Origin: Vectrevirus NIC06P3
Strand: one strand, 5' to 3'
Sequence record: OZ035778.1
Length of the DNA: 45,947 bases
The translations under genes and the position numbers were made by a program. The notes under the pieces are model-generated. The model was not told the DNA's origin, did no database searches, and was given only the letters and a program-made list of their open reading frames with translations. Positions 330-41,440 of this stretch are shown piece after piece; position 1 is the stretch's first letter, and the number at the start of each line of letters is the position of its first letter.

Positions 330-2227
330 TGGCTAAGGCAAGAGAATCACAAGCAGAGGCTCTTGCCAGATGGGAGATGCTACAGGAGTTACAGCAGACC
401 TTTCCTTACACAGCGGAAGGTTTGCTTCTCTTTGCAGACACAGTTATTCATAACTTGATTGCGGGCAATCCTCATCTGATTCGTATGCAGGCCGATATCT
501 TAAAGTTCCTTTTCTACGGACACAAGTATCGCCTCATAGAAGCGCCTCGTGGTATCGCTAAAACAACACTATCAGCAATCTATACGGTATTCCGTATCAT
601 CCATGAACCACATAAGCGTATCATGGTTGTATCCCAAAACGCCAAGCGAGCAGAGGAAATCGCTGGTTGGGTGGTGAAAATCTTCCGTGGATTAGACTTC
701 CTTGAATTTATGCTACCTGATATCTACGCTGGGGACCGTGCATCCGTTAAGGCATTCGAGATTCATTACACACTACGTGGTAGTGACAAGTCTCCTTCTG
801 TGTCTTGCTATTCAATTGAAGCAGGTATGCAGGGTGCTCGTGCGGATATTATCCTAGCGGATGACGTAGAGTCGATGCAGAATGCTCGTACCGCAGCAGG
901 TCGTGCACTACTTGAGGAATTAACCAAGGAGTTTGAATCTATCAACCAGTTTGGTGATATCATTTATCTTGGTACACCTCAGAACGTAAACTCTATCTAC
1001 AACAACCTGCCTGCTCGTGGTTACTCTGTTCGCATCTGGACTGCACGTTACCCTTCAGTGGAGCAGGAGCAATGCTATGGTGACTTCCTTGCACCTATGA
1101 TTGTTCAAGATATGAAGGACAACCCAGCACTGCGCTCAGGTTATGGCTTGGATGGCAACAGTGGTGCACCTTGTGCACCGGAAATGTACGATGATGACGT
1201 CCTGATTGAGAAGGAAATCTCGCAGGGTGCTGCTAAGTTCCAGCTCCAATTCATGCTTAACACTCGCATGATGGATGCTGACCGCTACCCTCTACGCCTG
1301 AATAACCTTATCTTCACCTCATTCGGTACGGAGGAAGTCCCTGTGATGCCTACATGGAGCAATGACTCTATTAACATCATTGGCGATGCACCTAAGTATG
1401 GCAATAAACCTACAGACTTCATGTATCGACCTGTTGCCAGACCCTATGAGTGGGGTGCTGTTACCCGCAAGATTATGTATATCGACCCGGCGGGTGGCGG
1501 TAAGAATGGGGACGAAACGGGCGTGGCTATCGTCTTCCTGCATGGCACATTCATTTACGTATATCAGTGCTTCGGTGTGCCGGGCGGATACCGCGAATCG
1601 TCCCTGAATCGCATTGTGCAGGCCGCAAAGCAGGCAGGCGTTAAAGAGGTATTCATTGAGAAGAACTTCGGTCATGGCGCGTTTGAGGCAGTAATTAAGC
1701 CATACTTTGAACGAGAGTGGCCCGTTACACTGGAAGAGGATTACGCCACCGGACAGAAAGAGTTGCGTATCATTGAGACGCTGGAGCCGCTCATGGCGGC
1801 GCACAGGCTCATCTTCAACGCCGAGATGGTCAAGTCTGATCTTGAGTCAGTACAGCACTACCCGCTTGAATTACGCATGTCCTATAGCCTTTTCAATCAA
1901 ATGTCGAACATCACGACTGAGAAGAATAGCCTCCGGCATGATGACCGCTTAGACGCCCTGTATGGCGCTATACGGCAATTAACTTCTCAGATAGACTATG
2001 ACGAGGTTACACGGATTAATCGCCTCAGAGCGCAGGAGATGCGCGATTACATCCAAGCCATGAACACACCTCACCTCCGAAGGGCAATGCTCTATGGGGA
2101 CTATGGCACTGAGCGAAGAGTGACCAACACTTCTGTAGCGATGCAGCAGCGGGTTTACGGTCAGAATTACCGGAATAAGTCTTCCAATAGAAATACTATT
2201 TCTGCAAGGATTTCAAGGACTTATTAA
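329..2227 (+). CDS. terminase large subunit (T7 gp19-like)
   Basis: Motifs FRGIGKS-like APRGIAKTT, RADIILADDVE, IYLGTPQN, FQLQFMLN and HDDRLDAL match T7 gp19; RBS AAGGAGGA at 318-325. Confidence 0.9.
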   Translation: MAKARESQAEALARWEMLQELQQTFPYTAEGLLLFADTVIHNLIAGNPHLIRMQADILKFLFYGHKYRLIEAPRGIAKTTLSAIYTVFRIIHEPHKRIMVVSQNAKRAEEIAGWVVKIFRGLDFLEFMLPDIYAGDRASVKAFEIHYTLRGSDKSPSVSCYSIEAGMQGARADIILADDVESMQNARTAAGRALLEELTKEFESINQFGDIIYLGTPQNVNSIYNNLPARGYSVRIWTARYPSVEQEQCYGDFLAPMIVQDMKDNPALRSGYGLDGNSGAPCAPEMYDDDVLIEKEISQGAAKFQLQFMLNTRMMDADRYPLRLNNLIFTSFGTEEVPVMPTWSNDSINIIGDAPKYGNKPTDFMYRPVARPYEWGAVTRKIMYIDPAGGGKNGDETGVAIVFLHGTFIYVYQCFGVPGGYRESSLNRIVQAAKQAGVKEVFIEKNFGHGAFEAVIKPYFEREWPVTLEEDYATGQKELRIIETLEPLMAAHRLIFNAEMVKSDLESVQHYPLELRMSYSLFNQMSNITTEKNSLRHDDRLDALYGAIRQLTSQIDYDEVTRINRLRAQEMRDYIQAMNTPHLRRAMLYGDYGTERRVTNTSVAMQQRVYGQNYRNKSSNRNTISARISRTY

Positions 2228-2250
2228 TTACTGGACACTATAGAAGGAAG
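2223..2250 (+). promoter_or_regulatory. SP6-type phage promoter
   Basis: ATTAATTACTGGACACTATAGAAGGAAG; overlaps the terL stop codon. Confidence 0.7.
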
Positions 2251-2389
2251 ACCCAGAGGATAAGAGAAGTAATAAGGATAATATAGGTTAACCTAGGTTA
2301 TATAGGTATGCCTTAGTATGGGTGTACTCCTGTACACCCTATTCCTTACTTCCTTACTATATTTACATAATAGGAGAGAGAGAGAGACA

Positions 2390-4574: not shown

Positions 4575-4597
4575 ATTTAGGTGACACTATAGAAGAG
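4575..4597 (+). promoter_or_regulatory. SP6-type phage promoter (exact SP6 consensus)
   Basis: ATTTAGGTGACACTATAGAAGAG. Confidence 0.85.
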
Positions 4598-4669
4598 ATA
4601 GAGCGGCGATCGTTTGGTCGCCCTTTACTCAAGGTGCTCATGGTGGGCGCTTTAAGTAAAGGAGGAAAC

Positions 4670-5923
4670 ATGGCTCTAACGAGGCTTAGTTCTGATTTAG
4701 TCCGTGACGCAAAAGATGGTGGCACGTTGGGAGAGTGCCTACACGGATTTATGTCATTCTCTCAAGCAAAAGAAATAACAGGCTCTGATCAAGCTGCAAT
4801 GGAGTACCTCTTCTCTAACGCAAAAGTTATCTACATCAACGAGTCTTTGACACTAACAGAGAAGATAACCACAGACAGAAGTTCCGAGGTTACGGTACTT
4901 ACAAAGCCAGGTGTTGTAATAAATAACCTAGGATACATGCCAACAACAAGAACAAACCCCAATCACGTGGTTTCTGGTTTGTCTGTTAGAAACAAATTCA
5001 AACAAGATAATCAGTCTATTAATGGCAGGGTTTATAGTAAGCAAGCTGCATCATTTGAAGCAGCGGTTCATGATGCTGTTAGCAACGGTGGTACTTCTTC
5101 ATCTGAAAACTTTGTTGCACTTTATTCTGGGATAGAGTTCTTTAATTCCACGCTGCAAAGAGGTTGGGCCTTCAACTCTGTAACCAACTGCCATGGTATG
5201 AATACCGGAGATGAGATGTATGGTTATGAGTTGGACTTCAACGTAGATGGCAACCTAGATGGTGGCGGTCAAGCAGTTGGCTTGTACATTGCAGGTATTG
5301 GTGATTTGCGTCAGTGTGCAAACTCTGATGGCATTCGTGTACAACGGACACGTGACCTTGGTGGATTGTATAAGTGGAACCATGGTATTCGAGTTTTTGA
5401 CTCTATGACAGGCCTTGCCGTGATAGATTCAGCTACATATTCCATATTCGCACAAGGTTCTGCCCCTATAGTAAGGCGTAAGGCTGTGCAGGATGGAGGT
5501 TGGAGCTACATCCATAGTCTTAGCCCTACTAATATAACTTGGGGTGTTGATGATTATGGCTACACTTACTCGCCTCGTCTGTATCTTGGGTCTGGTTCTG
5601 GTAAGTCTAAGAACAGGGTTAATCTAGAAGGTGGTGTTTCATTTTACACCACTAACAAACCTGTTGGTTGGGGTGACATTGCTGCTGGGGCTTCTGTAAC
5701 TAAAAACTTCACAGAGTTGTTTGGTCTTGAAGAAGGCGACTACTCTAAGGCGGTGTTTACTGTAGGTGAGTTCCGTGTGGCTAACTCTTACGGAAGTTTG
5801 TTTGTCACTGTCTACACTAACTCAGCAAAAACTCAGGGGTATGTTAAGGTTACTAACCTAGGCTCAACTACTGTAACAGGCGTTGGGATAGGGATCAACC
5901 TGTCAATCCAAAAGGCGGGATAA
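4670..5923 (+). CDS. tailspike / receptor-binding protein 1
   Basis: 418-aa ORF with its own promoter, RBS AAAGGAGGAAAC, MALT N-terminus and leader shared with the next tailspike; Gly/Ser/Thr-rich beta-type composition. Specificity unknown. Confidence 0.55.
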   Translation: MALTRLSSDLVRDAKDGGTLGECLHGFMSFSQAKEITGSDQAAMEYLFSNAKVIYINESLTLTEKITTDRSSEVTVLTKPGVVINNLGYMPTTRTNPNHVVSGLSVRNKFKQDNQSINGRVYSKQAASFEAAVHDAVSNGGTSSSENFVALYSGIEFFNSTLQRGWAFNSVTNCHGMNTGDEMYGYELDFNVDGNLDGGGQAVGLYIAGIGDLRQCANSDGIRVQRTRDLGGLYKWNHGIRVFDSMTGLAVIDSATYSIFAQGSAPIVRRKAVQDGGWSYIHSLSPTNITWGVDDYGYTYSPRLYLGSGSGKSKNRVNLEGGVSFYTTNKPVGWGDIAAGASVTKNFTELFGLEEGDYSKAVFTVGEFRVANSYGSLFVTVYTNSAKTQGYVKVTNLGSTTVTGVGIGINLSIQKAG

Positions 5924-6011
5924 TAGGTATGTGCGGCGTAAGCCGCACTTTACGCGAACTTTCTTTCTTCATAGGCACTCATGGTGGGTGTCTATAAACA
6001 AAGGAGGTTAC

Positions 6012-8006
6012 ATGGCTTTAACCAAAGCTACAACAGTTAATGCATATCAGGGGCGTCCACCCGTTGTAATCACTGATAGCGTCGAAGATAAGTTAATGGA
6101 TGGACGTGCTGGTCTTCGTAAGCACTTTGGTGCTGTTGGGGACGGGCAACATGATGATACAGACGCCTTTGAAAAATGGATGGATTGCCTAACAGATGCA
6201 ACATATAAGCGTTTAGGGGCATTTTCGGACGAACACCCATATATGCTACAGAAAGGGCCACAGCTCATGTTAGAAGATGGGGCTTTCGTGTATGCTGGCA
6301 AAGGTTTGAACATCCCTACCCATCATGCCTTTGTTCTAAACATAATTGGACAAAGTTCCTTATCTACAAAAATTATCCTACCAGAAGATGTGTACTTCTT
6401 GGATTTAGATAACAACCCTGTGTTTTCTTATATGTCAGGTATTACGTTCCATGGTGGACTAGGTGCTGTACGCATGAAGTCTAAGTCATGCAATGCAACA
6501 AGTATGCACATATTTGAGCGTCTACGTATGTCTAGGTATAAGCAGTGTGCCTTTAGTAACAACTCAATAGATATGCCTTACGTTAAAATCAGAGACTCAG
6601 TGTTTATGGGAGATGTATCCAGAGAGACAATTGGACTGTGCTTATCTGGCCTGTCTGCTGGTAGTGATATCACAGGGAATCAGTTCACTGATAACAGGTA
6701 TAATCTCAAGTTAGCTGTTGCAGACAATGGTGTAGAACGTAATGGACCACCAACGCCTCTAAACATAGTAGGTAATGATTTCTATCGGACAGGACACCGC
6801 TCAGGTGCATCTTATGATATTTGGATTGAACCAGGTAAAACAGCTACAAACTCAGGACGGGGACTTGTTTTACAACGTAATAAGTTTGGGCAGGAGAACC
6901 TAAAGAGTCCAGATGCACACATTCTCATTGCAGATAGTGGGACAGGGCAAGGTGGTGATTTAAATGGGGACAGAATGCATGTAGAGACAAAATCTTCTGG
7001 ATTTGTGTCAGGCATTCTTTCAGAAGGCAACAATGTTAACTCTATCAATGGAAGTTACACTGCACCATACATCCGTAGCTTCACACCTAACTTTGGTAAC
7101 AATAAGATCCATGATATTTATGACAATGGAATGCCGTCTCGTATAGTAGAGTTCGCAGGTGGTATTACGCAAAGTGAAGTGGTTAATATATCTCGCACTA
7201 ATATGCTTGAGATTGATCAGTCTCTTGCCCTCCAGAAAGGGGATGTACCTAATTTATTGTCTAACCTAGATGGTGTGTTTCGTGTAAGGGATGATTTGGG
7301 TCTGTTGGCAGGACACCCTCAAGTGCACGACACACCAACCGGTTCTCAGATGTCAGATTTTCTGCATGTATATAAAGGACCAACATCTAGTCTTGCTGTT
7401 GCAGAAGCAACGCGCTTGGCTATTGATAACTCCTATGGAGGTAAAAATGAGGCAGCAGAGTTCACTATGACAACGGAAGATGGACGTGCAGTTGCAACGG
7501 TGACAGGGCTTGTTGCTGGTGATACTTTCTGGTTAGATTTTGAGGTAAAGAGATCTGCTGACAATGCGGCCCCTCGTGTGCTCTTCGAGGTACTAGATTC
7601 AAGTGCGAGTACCTTACTTCTTCGAAGGACTATACTGTTAGATGCGAAGCAGAGATGGCAGAAAGTTGTGCTACCTTTTGTGCCAAACAGTTCTGGTAGT
7701 ATCTTTGTTCGCTTTAAGGCGAAAGGTTGGACACCTTCTAATAAGAAGTTTCAAGTAGGAAACCTTAATGTATACCGCAACCATACACCAGTTAACACTG
7801 GACATAATGGAGGTTTATCTTCCTCTTGGAGTTCACAGCACATCCTTATTGGGTCTTACCACTTATGGGTAGATGCAACTGGCGCATTGCGTATCAAAGA
7901 TGGCGCACCTACGTCTGTTAACGATGGTGTCATCGTTGGCAGTCAGTCAGAAAGTGTTAGCCAACAAGTATCGGGTGATGGTATACAAACCATTGATAGT
8001 GTCTAA
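6012..8006 (+). CDS. tailspike 2, pectate-lyase-like beta-helix (probable polysaccharide depolymerase)
   Basis: HFGAVGDGQHDDTDAFEKW motif typical of right-handed beta-helix tailspikes; RBS AAAGGAGG; MALT N-terminus. Confidence 0.65.
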   Translation: MALTKATTVNAYQGRPPVVITDSVEDKLMDGRAGLRKHFGAVGDGQHDDTDAFEKWMDCLTDATYKRLGAFSDEHPYMLQKGPQLMLEDGAFVYAGKGLNIPTHHAFVLNIIGQSSLSTKIILPEDVYFLDLDNNPVFSYMSGITFHGGLGAVRMKSKSCNATSMHIFERLRMSRYKQCAFSNNSIDMPYVKIRDSVFMGDVSRETIGLCLSGLSAGSDITGNQFTDNRYNLKLAVADNGVERNGPPTPLNIVGNDFYRTGHRSGASYDIWIEPGKTATNSGRGLVLQRNKFGQENLKSPDAHILIADSGTGQGGDLNGDRMHVETKSSGFVSGILSEGNNVNSINGSYTAPYIRSFTPNFGNNKIHDIYDNGMPSRIVEFAGGITQSEVVNISRTNMLEIDQSLALQKGDVPNLLSNLDGVFRVRDDLGLLAGHPQVHDTPTGSQMSDFLHVYKGPTSSLAVAEATRLAIDNSYGGKNEAAEFTMTTEDGRAVATVTGLVAGDTFWLDFEVKRSADNAAPRVLFEVLDSSASTLLLRRTILLDAKQRWQKVVLPFVPNSSGSIFVRFKAKGWTPSNKKFQVGNLNVYRNHTPVNTGHNGGLSSSWSSQHILIGSYHLWVDATGALRIKDGAPTSVNDGVIVGSQSESVSQQVSGDGIQTIDSV

Positions 8007-8670: not shown

Positions 8671-9590
8671 AGGCGTGTGTGAGCTCTCTCGCCCTCGCCC
8701 TCGCCGGGTTGCCCCCCCCCCCCCCCGCCCCCCCCCGCCGCGCCGGGGGCCGGGGGGGGGGCGGGGGGCGGGGGGGGGGCCGGGCCCGCCGCGCGCCGCC
8801 ACCCGGGAGGAGGCCCCCGCGGCCGTAGACGCGCTGTGCCTGAGCGTCCCCGCCGCGGCCGAGACGGCCCTGCGGCGTCTCCTGGTCGGGGAGGCCGCGG
8901 CGCCTCAGCGCGAGGACGCCGGGTCGACGGCGGCGGCGCCGGCCGGACCGGGCTCCTCCTCGGGCGAGCCCGGCGAGGGCGCGCTCACGGACCAGGCCAG
9001 CCAGAGCCCCAGCGCGTAGAGCGGCAGACCCATCACGAGACGGGCGACGCCCAGGGCCGTCGCCGCGTCCGCGAGGTAGAGCGGCACCTGCACGCCCAGC
9101 CGCAGCGCGAAGACGGCCGCCATCACCCAGGTGGCCGCCGCGTAGGCGCGCCGGCGGCGGGGGTCCGCACGCCATGCGGTCCCCTCCCCGCGCACGAGGC
9201 CGAGGATCAGGCCCACCACGGGCCAGCCCGCGAGGATCGAGACGAGGAACGCGAGGCCGTAGCCGGCGTTCGTGATGAAGCCCCAGAGGTAGTAGTCCCG
9301 GGCCTGCCCCGTGGTCAGGGCCACCGCCACCGAGAGCACGACGACGACGAGCCCGGCCAGGACCTGCGCGGGCGACTGGCGCTGCGCGAGCCGGACCACG
9401 CCCATGAGGACGGCCACGCCCGCGGCGGCCACGCCCGAGGGCCACACCTGCTGGGCCCCCGTGGTTTGGGGGGGTCGTTGTGGTCTGAATCCGCGCGTTT
9501 TCACAATGTAAATTTTTTTTTTTGAGGGGTGGTTGTGCCCGCCCCCCCCGCCCCCCGGGGGGGGCCCCCCCCCCCCCCCCCCCCCCATAT
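8671..9590. other. foreign high-GC block bounded by C/G homopolymer tracts (probable chimeric/artefactual insert)
   Basis: Abrupt composition shift; C16/C8/G10-type runs at 8711-8790 and a C22 run at 9565-9586; T11 run at 9514-9524; minus-strand frame reads like a truncated polytopic membrane protein. Confidence 0.6.
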
Positions 9591-9659: not shown

Positions 9660-10236
9660 TTGCCTTGTACTATCTTAGTGATACACAAGGGAGGACGCCT
9701 AGGAAGCGCTAGGGCACGCCTTAGTATTGGACAAGGTGATTGCCTTAGTGCAACCACTTTGGGCTTACACAGGCCGTTTTAGGGCCATTCTGGGCTATTG
9801 ACAGGGTGGGCGTGGGTGGGCTATCTGTTCGTTTCGTTCACTCCGCTTGCGCTACGTTCACTCGCTCACGTGTACCTTAGGTTATTGCTTGATGGGTAGC
9901 TTAAGTTAACCTTAGTGGATTGCCTTAGTTAAAGCCTTAGTGCTTCACTTAGTATCAGCTTAGTAGTGTACCTTAGTTGGTCTTAGTTCCTTATCTTAGT
10001 GATTGCACATGCAAGCATATAAGATGCCAATAGGTCGCGGTCGGTAGACCGCTAAAGAAAGAGAATAGTAATAAGATGCAGCAGGAGGAACACCAGAAAC
10101 CTAGCCAACCTAACCTATCCTAGCCTTGTATCTATTGCTTATCCTTAGTCTCACACGTTAGACAACCTAGGTTTATATTAGTAGTTGTGACCTGTATCAC
10201 ATAAATAATCTATCTTAGTGAAACTTAGTGTTGACA
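9660..10236. repeat. array of short CTTAGT(G) repeats in the genome left-end non-coding region
   Basis: At least 15 copies of (C)CTTAGT(G), eight of them within about 100 bp (9900-10010); analogous to the short repeat arrays near T7 termini. Confidence 0.55.
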
Positions 10237-11592: not shown

Positions 11593-11616
11593 ATTTAGCT
11601 GACACTATAAGAGAAG
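11593..11616 (+). promoter_or_regulatory. variant phage promoter (ATTTAGCTGACACTATAAGAGAAG)
   Basis: Three mismatches to the SP6 consensus; strength unknown. Confidence 0.4.
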
Positions 11617-11683
11617 ATTTAACAGGGCGTTACTTGTTAGCGCCCGATTAAGTTTATCTCAATAAACCAAATAGGTGATTATT

Positions 11684-12631: not shown

Positions 12632-15259
12632 ATGCAAGATTTACATGCTATCCAGCTTCAATTAGAAGAAGAAATGTTTAACGGTGGCATTCGTCGCTTT
12701 GAAGCAGACCAACAGCGCCAAATTGCATCCGGTAACGAATCCGATACAGCTTGGAATCGCCGCTTATTATCCGAGTTAATCGCGCCAATGGCTGAAGGTA
12801 TTCAGGCTTATAAGGAAGAGTACGAAGGTAAAAGAGGCCGTGCACCGCGTGCATTAGCTTTCATTAACTGTGTAGAAAACGAAGTGGCAGCATATATCAC
12901 GATGAAAATCGTTATGGATATGCTGAACACGGATGTAACCTTGCAAGCGATAGCCATGAATGTAGCGGACCGCATCGAAGACCAAGTCCGCTTTAGCAAG
13001 CTGGAAGGTCACGCCGCAAAATACTTTGAGAAAGTTAAGAAGTCACTTAAGGCAAGTAAGACTAAAGCCTATCGCCATGCGCATAATGTAGCGGTAGTTG
13101 CTGAAAAGTCAGTGGCTGACCGTGACGCAGACTTCTCCCGCTGGGAGGCGTGGCCTAAAGATACCTTGCTGCAAATAGGCACTACCCTGCTTGAAATCTT
13201 AGAGAATAGTGTGTTCTTCAACGGTCAGCCTGTTTTCCTCCGCACCTTGCGCACTAATGGCGGCAAGCATGGCGTTTACTACTTACAGACTAGTGAACAC
13301 GTTGGCGAGTGGATAACTGCATTTAAAGAGCACGTAGCGCAGCTTAGTCCTGCCTATGCGCCTTGCGTTATCCCTCCGCGTCCGTGGGTGTCACCATTTA
13401 ACGGTGGTTTTCACACTGAGAGAGTGGCTAGTCGTATCCGTCTAGTTAAAGGCAACCGCGAGCACGTCCGCAAGCTAACCAAAAAGCAAATGCCAGCGGT
13501 TTACAAGGCTGTTAACGCTTTGCAGGCGACCAAGTGGCAGGTTAATAAGGAAGTGTTGCAGGTTGTTGAGGATGTTATCCGCCTAGACCTTGGTTATGGT
13601 GTGCCTTCCTTTAAGCCACTCATCGACCGCGAGAATAAGCCAGCTAATCCGGTTCCGCTTGAGTTCCAGCACCTGCGCGGTCGTGAACTGAAAGAAATGT
13701 TAACACCGGAACAATGGCAAGCCTTCATCAACTGGAAGGGTGAATGTACTAAGCTGTATACCGCAGAGACTAAGCGTGGCAGTAAGTCGGCGGCAACCGT
13801 TCGCATGGTCGGGCAAGCCCGTAAATACAGCCAGTTTGACGCTATTTATTTTGTATATGCACTGGATAGCCGTTCACGCGTTTATGCGCAATCTAGCACG
13901 CTCTCGCCGCAGTCAAACGACCTAGGCAAGGCATTGCTACGATTTACCGAAGGGCAGCCGCTAAACAGCTCTGAAGCGCTTAAATGGTTTTTGGTGAACG
14001 GGGCAAATAACTGGGGTTGGGATAAGAAAACCTTCGACGTCCGCACCGCTAATGTGCTGGATGGCGAATTTCAGGACATGTGCCGCGATATTGCAGCCGA
14101 TCCTCTGACCTTCACTCAATGGGTAAATGCCGATTCACCTTATGGGTTTCTTGCATGGTGCTTTGAGTACGCTCGCTATTTGGATGCACTGGAGGAAGGC
14201 ACACAAGATCAGTTCATGACACACCTGCCAGTACACCAAGACGGTAGCTGTTCCGGCATTCAGCACTATAGCGCGATGTTACGCGATGAAGTAGGTGCGA
14301 AAGCGGTAAACCTTAAGCCGTCCGATGAGCCGCAAGATATTTATGGGGCCGTTGCGCAAGTAGTTATCCAGAAGAACTATGCTTACATGAATGCAGATGA
14401 TGCAGAGACTTTCACGTCTGGCAGCGTCACCCTTACAGGTGCGGAATTGCGTAGCATGGCTAGCGCGTGGGATATGATAGGAATCACTCGCGGCTTAACC
14501 AAAAAGCCAGTGATGACCTTGCCTTACGGCTCCACCCGCTTAACCTGCCGTGAGTCGGTGATCGATTATATCGTTGATTTAGAAGAAAAAGAGGCACAAA
14601 GAGCTATTGCAGAAGGGCGGACGGCTAACCCTGTTCATCCCTTTGATAATGACCGTAAAGATTACTTAACTCCGGGCGCGGCGTATAACTATATGACCGC
14701 TCTTATCTGGCCTTCAATCTCTGAGGTTGTGAAAGCTCCGATAGTTGCCATGAAGATGATTAGGCAACTTGCACGCTTTGCAGCTAAAAGGAATGAAGGG
14801 TTAGAATACCCTCTGCCTACTGGCTTCATATTGCAACAAAAGATAATGGCTACCGATATGCTCCGCGTATCCACTTGTTTGATGGGTGAAATCAAGATGA
14901 GTCTACAGATTGAAACCGATGTGGTGGATGAAACGGCAATGATGGGTGCGGCTGCTCCTAACTTTGTGCATGGTCATGATGCTAGTCACCTTATCCTGAC
15001 TGTATGTGACCTCGTGGATAAAGGTATTACATCCATTGCAGTTATTCATGACTCTTTCGGCACTCATGCAGGACGTACCGCAGACTTGCGTGACAGCTTA
15101 AGGGCAGAAATGGTTAAGATGTATCAAAACCATAATGCCTTGCAAAACCTGCTGGATGTGCACGAAGAACGTTGGTTAGTAGACACCGGAATCCAAGTAC
15201 CCGAGCAAGGGGCGTTTGACCTTAACGAAATCTTAATATCTGACTATTGCTTCGCATAA
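12632..15259 (+). CDS. single-subunit DNA-dependent RNA polymerase, SP6-like
   Basis: 875 aa; near-colinear with the SP6 RNA polymerase as I recall it ([32 protein letters not shown]..., [15 protein letters not shown], ... FA C-terminus). Confidence 0.97.
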
Positions 15260-15331
15260 TATTGATAGGCCATTCCTTCGGGAGTGGCCTTTTCTTTACC
15301 TACTACCTGTAACATTTCATTAACATAAAGT

Positions 15332-15347
15332 GTCTCACATGTGAGAC
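15332..15347. promoter_or_regulatory. 16-bp perfect palindrome GTCTCACATGTGAGAC, copy 1
   Basis: Exact core also at 15518, 18599, 24792 and 41458, with a one-base variant at 20024; all intergenic. Confidence 0.5.
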
Positions 15348-15350
15348 TTA

Positions 15351-15373
15351 TATTTACCGGACACTATAGGATA
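15351..15373 (+). promoter_or_regulatory. phage promoter
   Basis: TATTTACCGGACACTATAGGATA. Confidence 0.7.
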
Positions 15374-15517
15374 AACCATCGGAGATGGGAAAGAGAAGGG
15401 AAGATAAAGGATATAAAGGAAGTAATAGGTATTAAAGGTTATATAGGTTTACCTAGGAATACCTATTACCTTCTTCCTTCCTCCTCTTACTACTTAGAGG
15501 AAGGGCAGACCTATGTT

Positions 15518-15533
15518 GTCTCACATGTGAGAC
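15518..15533. promoter_or_regulatory. 16-bp palindrome GTCTCACATGTGAGAC, copy 2
   Basis: Exact repeat of the core. Confidence 0.5.
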
Positions 15534-15537
15534 TTCG

Positions 15538-15560
15538 TATTTACCGGACAATATAGATAA
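15538..15560 (+). promoter_or_regulatory. variant phage promoter (GTATTTACCGGACAATATAGATA)
   Basis: Two core mismatches; second of a tandem pair downstream of the RNA polymerase gene. Confidence 0.5.
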
Positions 15561-15586
15561 GACTAACTCACTTTGGAGATTTAAAG

Positions 15587-15715
15587 ATGCGTAACTTTGA
15601 GAAGATGACCTGTAAAGCTAACCGTTTTGACATGGAAGAAGGGCAGAAGAAAGGCAAGAAGCTGAATAAACCTGTCCGTGACCGTGCATCCAAACGCGCA
15701 GCGTGGGAGTTCTAA
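15587..15715 (+). CDS. small basic protein, T7 gp1.1-like
   Basis: 42 aa starting MRNFEKMT, as T7 gp1.1 does by my recollection; position right after the RNA polymerase gene. Confidence 0.5.
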   Translation: MRNFEKMTCKANRFDMEEGQKKGKKLNKPVRDRASKRAAWEF

Positions 15716-22777: not shown

Positions 22778-22800
22778 GATTTACTGGACACTATAGAAGG
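22778..22800 (+). promoter_or_regulatory. phage promoter
   Basis: ATTTACTGGACACTATAGAAGG. Confidence 0.8.
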
Positions 22801-22865
22801 AAAGCCTAGGTAATCTAGGTTTATAAGGTAGTATACTTAATTAAGTAAATATAGGAGGTGTAAAT

Positions 22866-23243
22866 ATGTCTATGGTAACTACTCTGGTATACGTAGCTCG
22901 ATGCTTTCGTGGTCTGGCTTATAAATTCAAGTTAAAGGCTATCACAGCTATTAAGTTTCGCATCGAAGCAGTACAGGCAGAACAAGTCAAAGTTGAAGAA
23001 CACCGTAGTTCTCAAATGATTGACTGCCATAATCGCTACTATGCATCTCGTGATGACCTGAATGCACGTCAAGTCAAAGAGGTTGAAGAGATGTTAGCAC
23101 GTCACCAGCAAGAGCGTGACAACCTGAAAGCCGCCTTCGAAGAGAACAAGGCAGTCATTGCCCTTGTACATCAAGCTGCATCTGACAGTCTGAAGAAAGA
23201 GATTGTTATGCTGGAGATTGAACTGGACAACCTGACCAAGTAA
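22866..23243 (+). CDS. hypothetical protein (coiled-coil)
   Basis: RBS TAGGAGG; 125 aa. Confidence 0.5.
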   Translation: MSMVTTLVYVARCFRGLAYKFKLKAITAIKFRIEAVQAEQVKVEEHRSSQMIDCHNRYYASRDDLNARQVKEVEEMLARHQQERDNLKAAFEENKAVIALVHQAASDSLKKEIVMLEIELDNLTK

Positions 23244-24821: not shown

Positions 24822-24846
24822 TATTTACTGGACACTATAGAAGAGA
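24822..24846 (+). promoter_or_regulatory. phage promoter
   Basis: GTATTTACTGGACACTATAGAAGAG. Confidence 0.8.
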
Positions 24847-27966: not shown

Positions 27967-27983
27967 TTGACACTATAGAACAA
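27961..27983 (+). promoter_or_regulatory. phage promoter
   Basis: ATTTAGTTGACACTATAGAACAA; followed by a 5' stem-loop AAGGGTA ... TACCCTT (27983-28006). Confidence 0.7.
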
Positions 27984-28033
27984 AGGGTAGGTGCTAGCTT
28001 ACCCTTGATTGTATAGTGAATGGAGGAATTAAT

Positions 28034-33290: not shown

Positions 33291-33316
33291 TATTTACTGG
33301 ACACTATAGAAGGGAG
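33291..33316 (+). promoter_or_regulatory. phage promoter (capsid)
   Basis: TATTTACTGGACACTATAGAAGGGAG; followed by 5' stem-loop AGGGAGA-AATA-TCTCCCT. Confidence 0.8.
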
Positions 33317-33364
33317 AAATATCTCCCTAAATTATCAATTTGATTTATAAGGAGATCATAATAC

Positions 33365-37764: not shown

Positions 37765-38492
37765 TGGCTATAGGTTCAGCCGTTATGTCTGGTATGTCCT
37801 CTCTGGGTAGTATGTTTGCAGGTAGCGGTGCAGCAGCCGCTGCAGGTGGTACTGCCGCCGCAGCAGGTGGTGGAGGTTTACTAGGTTCCGTGGGAAGTTT
37901 CCTAAGTGGTTCCACTGGTGGCTTCTCCAATACAGGCTTGCTTAGTGCAGGTATGCAAGGTCTTGGTCTTCTAGGTAATCTTTTTGGTGGAAGTGATGAA
38001 GCCAAAGCTATGAAGAAAGCTCAGGAGGAGCAATGGCGGCAGCAGTTAATTGCTACACAAGAGGCATACAAAACGGTAGCAGATGCAGAACGCTCTGCTG
38101 CTAAACAGTACCATGCAGACGCAATAAGCAATCAGGCTTCACTACTACAGCAGCGAGCACAGGTTGCATTACTTGCAGGTGCTACGGGAACTGGTGGTAA
38201 CTCTGTGTCTTCTATGCTGAATGATTTGGCAGCAGAGGGAGGGAGGAATCAGAGTACAATTATTGATAACTATGAGAATCAGAAGATTAATTTCACCAAC
38301 CAGCTTAAGTCCATTCAACGTGGTGGACAGATGCAGATGCGTGAGTTTAGGAAACCTTCTGCCGTAAGTACCTTGGTTCAAGGTATTCCAAGTCTTGCAT
38401 CTGCCTATGTAATGGGTAGCAAGTCTGGTACGGCATTAGGTAAAGCCTTAACTGATTCTCGTACATATTCATCTGGAACAAGAGGTATTTAA
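37764..38492 (+). CDS. internal virion protein (Gly/Ala-rich N-terminus)
   Basis: RBS AAAGGAGGG; first of three internal core genes by order. Confidence 0.6.
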   Translation: MAIGSAVMSGMSSLGSMFAGSGAAAAAGGTAAAAGGGGLLGSVGSFLSGSTGGFSNTGLLSAGMQGLGLLGNLFGGSDEAKAMKKAQEEQWRQQLIATQEAYKTVADAERSAAKQYHADAISNQASLLQQRAQVALLAGATGTGGNSVSSMLNDLAAEGGRNQSTIIDNYENQKINFTNQLKSIQRGGQMQMREFRKPSAVSTLVQGIPSLASAYVMGSKSGTALGKALTDSRTYSSGTRGI

Positions 38493-41440
38493 TGGCAATT
38501 GAGCGACAAGCAGTACAAGGTCTGCCACAAGTGCAGGCCACTTCTCCTAATGTCATGACCTTTGCACCTCAGCAAGTTGGAGGTGTGGAGACTGGCGTAG
38601 CTTCTACCTCCGGTAGTCGATTTATCGAAGACCTTATTCGAGCAGCCAGCAGTGTAGCTGATGTAACTACTGGTATCCTTAATCAAAAGATTGAGGAAGA
38701 TAAGGTTGTTCAAATGGAAAGGGCATATAATGGATTAATGCCTTCTGAGGATGCAACTCGTGGTGGCGCTCGTGCTAACATGCTTGTCAAAGCTCAACTG
38801 CTGGCTAATGATGAAGCAGCACGAATGAAAGACATGGCTACTCGTTTCCAAGGAACGGATGACGAGTGGACGCAACTCATGGTCGATTCTCGTAATGAGA
38901 TGCAGAATAAGCTGTTCCAGCAATACCCAGAGTTGCAAGGTGACAAAGATACAATGCGTATGGTCACTAACGTATTTCAGGAACAGCAGCCTCAGATTTG
39001 GGCCACACGTACCCAGCACAAACTGGACCGTGAACAGGCAGACCGTGAAGATACCTTTGACGGGCGAGTAGCTTCTACTTGGGACTCTAGTATTGACCCT
39101 GAAGCCTCTGGTTATGCTTTACAGGAACGAATCCGAGAAGGTCTGACGCAAGGTTTACTGCCTGAGCAGATGCACAAGAAGCTGGTAGAGCGAGCCATCT
39201 CGCTTGCTCAAGGCGGTGACATTAGTATGGCTGAAGCCTTGAAGTATGTGAAAGATGATAAAGGTGTTTCTGTCTATGCTAAGAACCCCCAGCTTATCAC
39301 AGCTATCACTAATGGTAATGCAGTTTGGGCTAGGAATAATGTTGCTGATGTAACGCGTATGTCTTTTGAAGTCAAAGAGTCTTACCTTGCAGGTGACTTG
39401 ACTGATGAAGAATTACTTGAGCGAGCACAGCACATTAATAGCCTGACAGGGAACTCTGTCTTCTCTAATCCAGAACTAGAAGCATTGATGCGCCAACGAG
39501 CTAAGCAGAATGCAGAGCTAGGTGCAATGCAGGATATGCGACGTGAACTTTACTCTGATCGTATGATTGGTCTTCAAGGTAAGTCGGATAAAGAAAAGAA
39601 AGCCTACGTTGATCTTATCAAACAAGATAGTCAACTCTACATAGACCAGCAAATCAAGCAGCGAGGAGTAGACCCTTACAGCCAAGAGGCCGAAGCTATA
39701 CGTGGTGCAGTAGAAGTACAGCGCCTGCAATTCATGAACTCCAAAGGTTTAGTGGATGATACCTTTGAATCTCGTATCAAGGCTATGGAATCCATGCTAT
39801 CACCTGAGCACTTTGCTAAAGGTGAACCACAGGAGTTAATGACCATTCGTCAGTTGTGGGAGCAGTTACCCGAAGAAAGTCGAGGTGTCTTTGGTGACAC
39901 TGTGAACAGCTATATGGATAACTACAATACTGCATTGCAAATGGGTGAAACACCTTTGCAGGCTGCAAGGTTTGCCCGTGAAGCACAGCAGAAATTCTCT
40001 CGTACCGAGAAAGAGACTAAGAAGTTCAACTCAGCTATTGGAGATGCATTGGATGAAGTATCTGGTGCTGGCTGGTTCGACGGTAAGACAGAAGTGTCTG
40101 ACTTAGGTAAAGCTATTGCAGAAGAAGAACTACGGGCTAAGGCCAATATGTTGTGGTCTAGCGGCATGCGTAACATGGATTCCATCAAGAAGGCTTTAAT
40201 TACTTGGGGCAACAAACGCTACACTCAATCAGAGGATGCAAAGACTTCCGGTGGCTATTTCATTAAAGGCGATTACACTTCTGCATCTGACATGCTTATG
40301 TCAGTTGGGAAAGGTGTAAACCCTACCGATGTACCTCTGGCACTTGGTAGGTATGTAGAAACACAGATGCCAGAATTGAAGAAGGAACTTCAAGAGTGGG
40401 AAACTAAAGATGATATATACATTGATTACAATGAACAGAAAGGTACTTTCGTGATTCGTGCTGGTGCAGCAGGTCGCCCTCTTTCTGGAGTAATCCCTGT
40501 AACCTCTTTAGATACCACTTCACTACTAGATTCTGCCTATCAGAAGAAAGTAGAGGAACGAGATAAAGGCGAGTACGTTCACCCGTATCGTACAGATATT
40601 GGTGCACAAGAGCCTATGCCAGCTAAACCAACTGCCAAAGATATTGGTAAATTTGGACTAGCTAACTTCCTCATGTCTTCTGCTTTTGCTTCTGGTGAGA
40701 ATCTACCTTCTAACTTCGAGATTAACTATCGAGGCAATATGCAACAATTCTATGACAAGCTAGCTATGGATGAGAATAAAGATAAAGTTGGCTTTAATAA
40801 GGCAACTGGAACCTTTACTCCATATAAAGACGCTCACGGTGAGTCTATCGGTTACGGTCATTTCTTAACAGAAGAAGAGAAGCGAAACGGGTATATTAAG
40901 ATTGGCGATGAACTAGTTCCCTATCGAGGGTCTATGTCTCAGCTTACAGAGAGTAAGGCTCGCGCTCTTATGGAGCAAGATGCCAAGAAGCATGTGCCCC
41001 CTACTCGTGACTGGAAGATTCCGTTTGAGCAGATGCACCCTGCACAGCAACGTGGTTTGATGGATTTAACCTACAACCTAGGTAAAGGTGGAATCCAAAA
41101 TGCACCACGTGCTCTTGCTGCATTCAAGGCGGGTAAACTTACTGAAGGCTTTATCGAAATGCTTGGTACTGCATCAAGTGAAGGTAAGCGTATTCCCGGC
41201 TTACTGAAGCGACGTGCTGAGGCTTACAACATGGCATCTGCTGGAGGTGTTCCTAAGATTACCGAAGTAGAAACTCGTGAGGATGGCTCTATGTGGGTTA
41301 AGTTTGGCGGTCCTATGCCAGCAGGCTCTGTCTCTGCGTGGACCCATAAGCGTATTGGTGCGGATGGCTGGTATCAAGTTTATGAGGCTGCACCTACCAA
41401 GTTAGCTAAAGGCTCTAAAGTAGGTAAAGTTAAGTTGTAG
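38492..41440 (+). CDS. internal virion protein with C-terminal T4-lysozyme-like (GH24) domain
   Basis: 982 aa; TFTPYKDAHGESIGYGHFLT and QRGLMDLTYNLGKGG parallel the T4 lysozyme YKDTEGYYTIGIGHLLT and INMVFQMGETG segments. Confidence 0.75.
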   Translation: MAIERQAVQGLPQVQATSPNVMTFAPQQVGGVETGVASTSGSRFIEDLIRAASSVADVTTGILNQKIEEDKVVQMERAYNGLMPSEDATRGGARANMLVKAQLLANDEAARMKDMATRFQGTDDEWTQLMVDSRNEMQNKLFQQYPELQGDKDTMRMVTNVFQEQQPQIWATRTQHKLDREQADREDTFDGRVASTWDSSIDPEASGYALQERIREGLTQGLLPEQMHKKLVERAISLAQGGDISMAEALKYVKDDKGVSVYAKNPQLITAITNGNAVWARNNVADVTRMSFEVKESYLAGDLTDEELLERAQHINSLTGNSVFSNPELEALMRQRAKQNAELGAMQDMRRELYSDRMIGLQGKSDKEKKAYVDLIKQDSQLYIDQQIKQRGVDPYSQEAEAIRGAVEVQRLQFMNSKGLVDDTFESRIKAMESMLSPEHFAKGEPQELMTIRQLWEQLPEESRGVFGDTVNSYMDNYNTALQMGETPLQAARFAREAQQKFSRTEKETKKFNSAIGDALDEVSGAGWFDGKTEVSDLGKAIAEEELRAKANMLWSSGMRNMDSIKKALITWGNKRYTQSEDAKTSGGYFIKGDYTSASDMLMSVGKGVNPTDVPLALGRYVETQMPELKKELQEWETKDDIYIDYNEQKGTFVIRAGAAGRPLSGVIPVTSLDTTSLLDSAYQKKVEERDKGEYVHPYRTDIGAQEPMPAKPTAKDIGKFGLANFLMSSAFASGENLPSNFEINYRGNMQQFYDKLAMDENKDKVGFNKATGTFTPYKDAHGESIGYGHFLTEEEKRNGYIKIGDELVPYRGSMSQLTESKARALMEQDAKKHVPPTRDWKIPFEQMHPAQQRGLMDLTYNLGKGGIQNAPRALAAFKAGKLTEGFIEMLGTASSEGKRIPGLLKRRAEAYNMASAGGVPKITEVETREDGSMWVKFGGPMPAGSVSAWTHKRIGADGWYQVYEAAPTKLAKGSKVGKVKL

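Follow-up and report, generated by a model that had tools for sequence, protein, structure and literature searches.

We analysed the non-coding interval between the RNA polymerase gene and the gene 1.1 homologue of Vectrevirus NIC06P3 (sequence record OZ035778.1), which contains a periodic array of AGG trinucleotides. The window, meaning the whole stretch of 45,947 nucleotides under analysis, corresponded to a complete Vectrevirus genome of the K1E/K1-5/SP6 group and, when mapped to K1E, proved to be circularly permuted, with the physical left end of the genome near 8690-9590. From left to right, the locus comprised the RNA polymerase gene, a terminator-like hairpin, a 21-nt block, a first palindrome, the promoter P1, a non-coding element of ~150 nt, a second palindrome, the promoter P2 and the homologue of T7 gene 1.1 (Table 1), the genes flanking the element being those for the polymerase, gp1.1 and the primase/helicase. 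It mapped to 6.8-7.0 kb of the 45.25 kb of K1E, ~15% from the left end, and its T7 counterpart lies at 5.9 of 39.9 kb. We are confident that this locus is the SP6-group homologue of the T7 gene 1/gene 1.1 intergenic control region. The periodic AGG array is the one feature without a T7 counterpart and makes the locus more than routine.

An initial annotation had described tandem phage promoters, each preceded by a 16-bp palindrome, flanking an inverted repeat with purine- and pyrimidine-skewed arms centred on CCTAGG. All of these elements were recovered, the promoters and palindromes at the positions given in Table 1. The best inverted repeat paired 15416-15433 with 15458-15475 (18 nt, 89% complementary), and purine content was 73% in 15370-15452 and 20% in 15458-15492, on the two sides of the central CCTAGG (15452-15457). 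The G+C content of the element was 0.38 versus 0.46 for the genome. The promoter family had 13 matches in the window versus 0.02 expected. Following the known SP6 promoter start, we take G15369 and G15556 to be the start sites of P1 and P2, respectively; the leader from the P2 start to the gene 1.1 homologue was 30 nt long. P2 was off consensus in every lineage, reading ACAGTATAG in other Vectrevirus and CACTATTG in SP6 and the Klebsiella phages.

Table 1. Positions in the window of the features at the locus and of its two sister elements.
Feature	Position	Strand	Basis or detail
Phage single-subunit RNA polymerase gene, 875 aa (T7 gene 1 equivalent)	12632-15259	+	List of open reading frames (ORFs); RNA polymerase in all matching Vectrevirus/Zindervirus annotations
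Terminator-like hairpin AGGCCATTCC-TTCG-GGAGTGGCCT, then T-rich run	15267-15298	+	Terminator scan: 10-pair stem, 6 G-C pairs
Conserved 21-nt block ACCTGTAACATTTCATTAACA	15305-15325	+	Nearly invariant in Vectrevirus, Zindervirus and Klebsiella-phage lineages
Palindrome copy 1 GTCTCACATGTGAGAC (GTCTCAC-AT-GTGAGAC), short stem-loop	15332-15347	+	4 nt upstream of the P1 match
Phage promoter P1 (18-mer ATTTACCGGACACTATAG at 15352-15369)	15352-15373	+	0 mismatches to the window promoter family
5′ stem-loop of the P1 transcript, CCATC-GGA-GATGG	15376-15388	+	RNAalifold consensus helix
Periodic array of 7 AGG (purine arm), the last within CCTAGG 15452-15457	15397-15457	+	Spacings 11, 9, 10, 9, 9 and 10 nt
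Pyrimidine tract complementary to the AGG array; 5′ part = 3′ arm of the main hairpin	15458-15492	+	20% purine
Alternative 3′ hairpin CCTTCCTC/GAGGAAGG and block GGAAGGGCAGAC	15476-15511	+	15476-15483 with 15497-15504, 100% complementary
Palindrome copy 2 GTCTCACATGTGAGAC, short stem-loop, then TTCGTATTT	15518-15533	+	5 nt upstream of the P2 match
Phage promoter P2 (18-mer ATTTACCGGACAATATAG at 15539-15556, variant ACAATATAG)	15539-15560	+	1 mismatch to the window promoter family
Homologue of T7 gene 1.1, 42 aa	15587-15715	+	Pfam PF08200 Phage_1_1, E = 1.7e-15, 57.6 bits versus cut-off 21
Sister element after the 633-aa ORF	2226-2381	+	Promoter 2226-2243; 4-unit AGG array 2275-2306; CCTAGG 2292; hairpin 2320-2339; pyrimidine arm 2340-2360
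Sister element	22779-22865	+	Promoter 22779-22796; 4-unit AGG array 22798-22828

A periodic AGG array follows P1

The periodicity of the array was examined with two scans. When every trinucleotide was searched on both strands for chains of at least five copies at a spacing of 9-11 nt, 15397-15457 was the only such chain in the window, the reverse-strand CCT match being its mirror image. A second scan, for chains of at least four AGG at a spacing of 9-10 nt, returned only 15408-15457, 2275-2306 and 22798-22828, with 0.035 per genome in a null of random sequences of the same composition. All three arrays were on the + strand, directly after phage promoters. The AGG units of the P1 transcript fell at +29, +40, +49, +59, +68, +77 and +87, a mean period of ~9.6 nt.

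The window segment 15200-15700 matched 79 phage records at 90-96% identity, nearly all of them Vectrevirus (K1E, K1-5 and relatives), and SP6, UAB_Phi78 and a group of Klebsiella phages at 67-72%. Conservation was analysed in 34 homologous loci taken from annotated phage records and IMG/VR contigs, which amounted to 31 distinct sequences and whose polymerases were down to 71% identical to that of the window. All 31 presented the same order: terminator-like hairpin, palindrome, P1, 5′ stem-loop, AGG array, pyrimidine tract, P2 and next gene. This order persisted where the promoter consensus itself had changed, P1 being found in every homologue even with an altered consensus (for example, AATTGTGGCGAGTATAG in L031). 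The arrays contained between 3 and 9 units depending on the lineage, ~80% of the intra-array spacings were 9 or 10 nt, and T was the base after AGG in about three quarters of the units. The first AGG of the array proper lay at +27 to +31 in each of the 13 lineages examined, three of which carried one extra AGG at the base of the 5′ stem-loop (+18/+19). The array was 64-74% purine in most lineages, and a pyrimidine-rich stretch (purine 0.23-0.40) came after it in every one.

The most conserved intergenic stretch across Vectrevirus, Zindervirus and the Klebsiella phages was the block ACCTGTAACATTTCATTAACA, which was missing in the most distant loci (L028-L033). Three relatives carried additional sequences: a third promoter with its own palindrome in the Salmonella phage SE29 (L009, 573-840), an HNH endonuclease gene that separates P2 from the gene 1.1 homologue in UAB_Phi78 (L007, 893-1303), and another between gene 1.1 and the primase gene in LL11 (L001, 2016-2453). 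Judging from these variants, insertions appear to be tolerated downstream of P2 and not inside the P1 element.

We also compared the array with known repeat systems. A CsrB/RsmZ-type sponge, which presents GGA repeats to CsrA, was rejected, since the conserved core was AGGT and not GGA, with T following AGG in most non-Vectrevirus units; GGA in a loop occurred only in the 5′ stem-loop. A CRP site and NarL heptamers were set aside as well, their spacing or orientation being unsuitable. Iteron-type origins contain several direct repeats of ~17-22 bp with a conserved sequence and depend on a dedicated initiator protein. An origin of this type, plasmid or lambda-like, was discarded, as the units measured 9-11 nt, only AGG (usually AGGT) was conserved and no initiator gene was identified.

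Two short stem-loops covary and the central hairpin changes register

RNAalifold was run on 23 sequences and recovered two helices only, the 5′ stem-loop and the palindrome. Three of the five pairs of the 5′ stem-loop were kept through changes on both sides (for example, G-C to A-U), with CCGTC/GACGG, CCATC/GATGG, CCTTC/GAAGG and CCCTC/GAGGG as variants. Similarly, the palindrome 2 helix showed U-A to C-G in 8 sequences and C-G to A-U in 10. Because pairing was maintained by compensatory changes in both cases, an RNA-level function is indicated, and the covariation points to RNA-level selection on these two stem-loops. Short G+C-rich stem-loops were also present 10-40 nt downstream of most phage promoters in the window (4592-4662, 11610-11645, 27978-28010 and 33309-33335), such as GGGAGA-AATA-TCTCCC downstream of the promoter at 33292, and CAAGGTGCTCA recurred downstream of the promoters at 4575 and 23548. 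These stem-loops match those found at the 5′ ends of T7 late transcripts.

The long central hairpin was not recovered across genera by RNAalifold, because its pairing register differs between them. When folded singly, every lineage gave such a hairpin, with 12-13 perfect pairs in L029-L031; the main fold predicted for the window sequence consisted of two helices, of 12 and 8 pairs, separated by a 17/2 internal loop. This sequence folded mildly better than its shuffles (z = -1.4 to -2.2), and the 31 distinct homologues all folded better than their own dinucleotide shuffles (z = -0.9 to -5.3). The antisense strand folded about as well as the sense strand. G-U pairs were more frequent in the sense strand (53 of 628 versus 32 of 590 in the antisense) and the sense fold was the more stable in 12 out of 16 lineages, which leans weakly toward RNA without deciding between RNA and DNA. 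A search of the whole window gave no Rfam family at gathering score; the only hits in the region, to plant microRNA precursors and below threshold, were dismissed as merely reflecting the long hairpin.

At the 3′ side of the element, SP6 has CCTTCCTATT/AATAGGAAGG where the alternative 3′ hairpin lies. The block GGAAGGGCAGAC was common to Vectrevirus and Zindervirus and missing in the Klebsiella-phage lineages. It includes GCA (15505-15507), which we take to be the SP6 primase recognition triplet, as Tseng et al. reportedly described in 2000; with only three nucleotides, such a match counts for little. The 3′ end of the element (ACTTAGAGGAAGGGCAGA, 15492-15509) was 83% identical to ACATGGAAGAAGGGCAGA (15630-15647), within the gene 1.1 homologue, and CCTTCTTCC (15469-15477), in the pyrimidine tract, was perfectly complementary to GGAAGAAGG (15634-15642) in the same gene. 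This likeness and complementarity could be due to long-range pairing or be the relic of a duplication.

The palindrome belongs to a genome-wide family

Eight copies of the palindrome GTCTCACATGTGAGAC were present in the window at up to two mismatches (0.17 expected), at 10148, 15332, 15518, 16536, 18599, 20023, 24792 and 41458, with the general form GTCTCAC-NN-GTGAGAC. All eight were syntenic in K1E and in SP6, where they read GTC(T/C)AAC-NN-GTTGGAC; the counterparts of copy 1 were at 6093 in SP6 and 6805 in K1E. The arms changed symmetrically, with pairing kept, and the 2-3 nt at the centre were variable. Six of the eight SP6 copies had the form GTCTAAC..GTTGGAC, which needs a U-G wobble and can therefore pair in the sense strand only.

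According to their genomic position, three copies closely preceded promoters (P1, P2 and the one at 24823) and three (18599, 20023 and 41458) closely preceded gene starts, the latter with stems extended to ~11 pairs and T-rich tails. One (16536) lay within the primase/helicase gene in all three genomes and one (10148) near the left end. Considered as terminators, both locus palindromes form a stem of six pairs, three of them G-C, and the sequence after it is TTATATTT or TTCGTATTT. Altogether, the palindromes look like RNA punctuation signals, either weak terminators or 3′ stability hairpins; copy 2, which was missing in the most distant loci (L028-L033), is possibly a weak terminator or 3′ hairpin for the P1 RNA. 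Seven putative terminators, the nearest of them 14 bp from a start site, have been listed for SP6 (PMC11347151) and could in principle be the palindromes; t5, the only terminator whose sequence is given in that work, is a hairpin other than the palindrome.

Two sister elements carry shorter arrays

The initial annotation had also pointed out similar promoter-proximal elements at two other sites, and this was borne out by the periodic-AGG scan, which found arrays at both. The first followed an ORF of 633 aa (326-2227) that aligns with K1E large terminase genes (K1E map and annotation), and the hairpin GGGTGTAC-TCCT-GTACACCC was present at 2320-2339, as had been proposed. Counterparts of its array were located at 37792-37851 in SP6 (7 units, after the terminase gene) and at 40082-40113 in K1E. 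The long pyrimidine arm was not found in the second sister element (22779-22865), whose K1E counterpart was a 5-unit array (13944-13983). In SP6, a 6-unit array (6163-6213) followed the P1 equivalent, in addition to the one behind the promoter past the terminase gene, and K1E had all three. The ribosome-binding site (RBS) region of the gene after the terminase-side element (2362-2381) was a GA run, AATAGGAGAGAGAGAGAGACA-ATG.

We propose, as a speculative and on balance doubtful idea, that AGG arrays form a previously undescribed class of promoter-proximal elements in the SP6 subfamily, which would act through the nascent transcript. They might be phased nucleation sites for R-loops that turn three particular promoters into origins. 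Alternatively, ribosomes or an RNA-binding protein might use them as a landing pad or be drawn to them as to a multi-site decoy. Action through the nascent transcript would explain the ~9.6-nt period, the fixed phase with respect to the transcription start and the conservation of the array amid sequence turnover.

The locus occupies the slot of the T7 primary origin

The T7 promoters phi1.1A (5848) and phi1.1B (5923; NC_001604) are located between gene 1 and gene 1.1. Both are primary origins; upon their deletion, secondary origins such as phiOR and phi6.5 come into use, and no T7 origin works without a phage promoter (PMC8373140). Our locus resembles the T7 primary origin in its slot, flanked immediately by the RNA polymerase gene on the left and the gp1.1 homologue on the right, its two predicted tandem rightward phage promoters, its low G+C content, its position ~15% from the left end, and the primase/helicase and DNA polymerase genes encoded nearby. 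Since it sits at the slot of the main T7 origin, it is a good, if unproven, origin candidate. There were also structural differences: a palindromic stem-loop precedes each promoter here, and a terminator-like hairpin comes before P1, whereas the early terminator of T7 follows gene 1.3.

The G+C content of the 110 nt after P1 was 0.35, compared with 0.46 for the genome. This falls within the range of the corresponding T7 values, which were 0.31-0.33 downstream of phi1.1B (0.31) and phi6.5 and 0.34-0.37 downstream of phiOL and phiOR, the lowest in T7; we count phiOL among the mapped origins together with the other three, which PMC8373140 names. The sister arrays recall the T7 secondary origins phiOR and phi6.5 in that they follow phage promoters, the larger one after the terminase gene, a phiOR-like position that we counted in favour of an origin. 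Unlike the sister elements, the T7 regions have no periodic array, and genes of a tail-spike module, not the genome end, follow the promoter here.

Transcription-primed origins with a persistent RNA-DNA hybrid include that of ColE1, primed by RNA II, and the mitochondrial light-strand promoter with conserved sequence block II, which is served by a T7-like polymerase. As in both, a promoter is followed at our locus by a non-template strand with purine or G clusters, whose transcript could stay hybridised as a primer. In contrast to them, only GG or GGG occur here, in an AT-rich context, and purine richness is lost in the most distant lineages.

Replication origin or RNA leader

Our best single mechanistic guess, which we hold tentatively and with somewhat less than even confidence, is that the locus also serves as the primary replication origin, on the strength of analogy and weak compositional evidence. 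Its support comes from synteny, low G+C content and GC skew; we also counted in its favour the conservation of the architecture in all 31 homologues, the uniqueness of the array in the genome and its purine content in most lineages. Raw GC skew was positive everywhere, with no sign change, and was uninformative. In SP6, K1E and the window genome (the latter after removal of the foreign insert described below), the detrended cumulative skew reached a global minimum at 0.55-0.8 kb rightward of P1. The fall from the left end to this minimum has the direction expected for an origin there, an ambiguous sign.

The scheme that we favour builds on the anatomy of the locus, its conservation, its synteny with T7 and the RNA-level selection on the two short stem-loops, all described above; each replication step is one that we infer. 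Early transcription would end at the hairpin past the polymerase gene, and the newly made phage polymerase would start at the tandem P1/P2, driving the gene 1.1 homologue and the primase/helicase gene. P1 would first transcribe the ~150-nt non-coding module, with its 5′ stem-loop, seven AGG, fold-back pyrimidine tract and palindromic stem-loop, and P2 would yield the same message with the 30-nt leader. By analogy with T7, transcription from P1/P2 may also prime the initial round of DNA synthesis. Across the array, the purine-rich P1 RNA would remain hybridised to its pyrimidine-rich template and then be passed on to the DNA polymerase, and the displaced strand, folded back on itself, would provide a site for the primase.

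Several results weigh against an origin at this locus. The skew minimum was broad, with a second trough at 11-12 kb in SP6 and K1E, and the shift coincided with the boundary between early and middle genes. The initial annotation had stated that the locus mirrors the T7 primary origin, and this was supported in part. The positional analogy (slot, tandem promoters and ~15% position) held and was stronger than that annotation had indicated; the low-G+C element, however, is between the promoters here and after the second one in T7, and the AGG array with its complementary pyrimidine tract exists only here. No comparable periodic array was found in T7, whether at the origin, in the secondary-origin regions or elsewhere. 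Local alignment to T7 5801-6010 gave a score of 23 versus 18.4 +/- 2.4 for shuffles (maximum 31), which was not significant, and several other promoters of the window were equally AT-rich downstream. The array was only 48-54% purine in the three most distant lineages, indicating that purine richness is not the conserved feature. The palindrome was rejected as an origin-specific feature, since its eight syntenic copies are spread over the genome and most of them closely precede gene starts. Dobbins et al. 2004 are said to suggest an SP6 origin in the DNA polymerase gene (secondary source PMC4837284). Finally, the conserved features fit a purely RNA-level role equally well or better, namely the covarying 5′ stem-loop, the near-fixed offset from the P1 start, the sense-only arrays in 5′ leaders and the resemblance of the units to a truncated RBS.

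The last of these objections leads to the strongest alternative, a real possibility to which we give somewhat less credence than to the origin. The element would be an RNA leader with no special replication role, that is, a structured 5′ leader or short non-coding RNA that tunes the stability or translation of the gene 1.1 and primase/helicase mRNA. It could do so through an RNase III-type processing or stability hairpin like R1.1 of T7, or through AGG units that mimic RBSs and pair with an anti-Shine-Dalgarno-like tract. Besides the two-sided changes in the 5′ stem-loop and palindrome, the sense-only wobble of the SP6 palindromes and the G-U excess with the more stable sense fold, this possibility gains from the near-constant distance between the P1 start and the array and from the confinement of the arrays to the sense strand of 5′ leaders just after promoters. 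A long hairpin can form in every lineage (12 + 8 pairs here). The units ATAGG, TAAGG and AAAGG resemble the 5′ half of the real RBSs of the phage (AATAGGAG, TAAGGAG and TATAGGAGG), and the SP6 pyrimidine tract contains ACCTCCTT, which we take to match the 3′ end of the 16S rRNA. Nevertheless, the register of the central hairpin is not conserved across genera, the few 5′-arm changes within Vectrevirus are uncompensated, both strands fold about equally well and Rfam gave no match. The 22796-22870 region has an array and no long hairpin, so that RNase III cleavage cannot explain all three arrays, and neither a hairpin nor ribosome binding predicts a strict period of 9-10 nt.

The comparison with R1.1 itself was similarly divided. 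This RNase III site comes from the same slot, the gene 1.0/1.1 intergenic region of T7, as an irregular hairpin of a 60-nt RNA (PMC6121014). The predicted hairpin of our element is likewise irregular, lies past the first tandem promoter of the corresponding intergenic region, and spans about two helical turns with an asymmetric internal loop; the sequence between phi1.1A and phi1.1B also folds into a 10-pair hairpin. In contrast, the internal loop measures 17/2 nt here and 4/5 nt in R1.1, the stem register differs between our genera, and sequence similarity to R1.1 was not significant. The upper stem of R1.1 (GGCCATTCC...GGAGTGGCC) was most resembled not by the inverted repeat but by the terminator-like hairpin upstream of P1. 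Specifically, AGGCCATTCC-TTCG-GGAGTGGCCT-TTT (15267-15290) resembles the T7 hairpin AAGGTCATTC-GCAA-GAGTGGCCTT-TAT (5861-5884), which we presume to be that upper stem; as the score was not above shuffles, this resemblance is no more than a lead.

A further alternative, which we regard as improbable, is that the AGG units are DNA-level iterons bound cooperatively, on one face of the helix, by a phage or host origin-binding or promoter-regulating factor, perhaps also at the smaller arrays. The 9-10 nt period is close to one helical turn and was kept in all lineages, the AGGT(A) core persisted where purine richness was lost, and the array was unique in the genome. The AGG columns were the invariant positions of the alignment and the spacers varied, although the invariance of the G columns may partly reflect anchoring by MAFFT in an AT-rich alignment. 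However, we identified no candidate protein that would bind the units, which are much shorter than known iterons and also far more degenerate, and the flanking hairpins appear to be under RNA-level selection. The arrays were also strictly sense-strand and tied to transcription starts, and a DNA-binding site needs neither. The least credible alternative, which we consider very improbable, is that nothing beyond the promoters is functional, the repeats being neutral products of replication slippage (which can produce tandem short repeats) in an AT-rich spacer, or that the region encodes the 71-aa ORF that spans it (15341-15556); yet array, offset and pyrimidine tract were kept across lineages with polymerases 71-85% identical and differing promoters, chance gives 0.035 such arrays per genome, and the ORF was rejected as coding, given its lack of a Pfam match and the one-base indels that break its frame in close relatives.

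As far as our search went, no mapped replication origin has been reported for the SP6/K1E group, a widely used one that supplies laboratories with SP6 polymerase and therapy with K1-specific phages. The full-text search returned nothing on the palindrome or on a Molineuxvirinae origin; Dobbins et al. 2004 and Scholl et al. 2004 may already describe the repeats or the locus. The locus offers a narrowly bounded origin candidate, for which the two sister sites would provide internal comparisons. Should initiation require the array, a T7-type transcription-primed origin would be shown to be capable of carrying a specific sequence element in addition to AT-richness. A role confined to RNA would make the array a new motif in the leaders of genes that phage polymerases transcribe, possibly useful in SP6-based expression systems. 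If neither holds, the locus would be an ordinary homologue of a well-known T7 control region.

Additional features of the locus and the genome

The terminator-like hairpin at 15267-15298 was the second-best terminator-like site in a 16-kb scan and carries a terminator annotation in one relative, MK373771. A G+C-rich hairpin with a T-run was present after the polymerase gene in all relatives, with differing stem sequences. This hairpin probably ends early transcription by the host RNA polymerase.

Near the left end of the genome, ~870 bp of the window (8711-9582) had ~75% G+C and long poly-C and poly-G runs on the flanks. Aligned to K1E, this insert sits between positions ~22 and ~27 of the terminal repeat, and its minus strand encodes a DUF3159 protein (PF11361, E = 1e-50), a family that we take to be actinobacterial. 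Rather than phage DNA, the insert seems to be an artefact of chimeric assembly where the genome ends join. Slightly further to the right, 9911-10000 contained eight copies of CTTAGT spaced 10-13 nt apart, with motif and period unlike those of the AGG arrays; they are comparable to the short repeat arrays beside the T7 terminal repeats.

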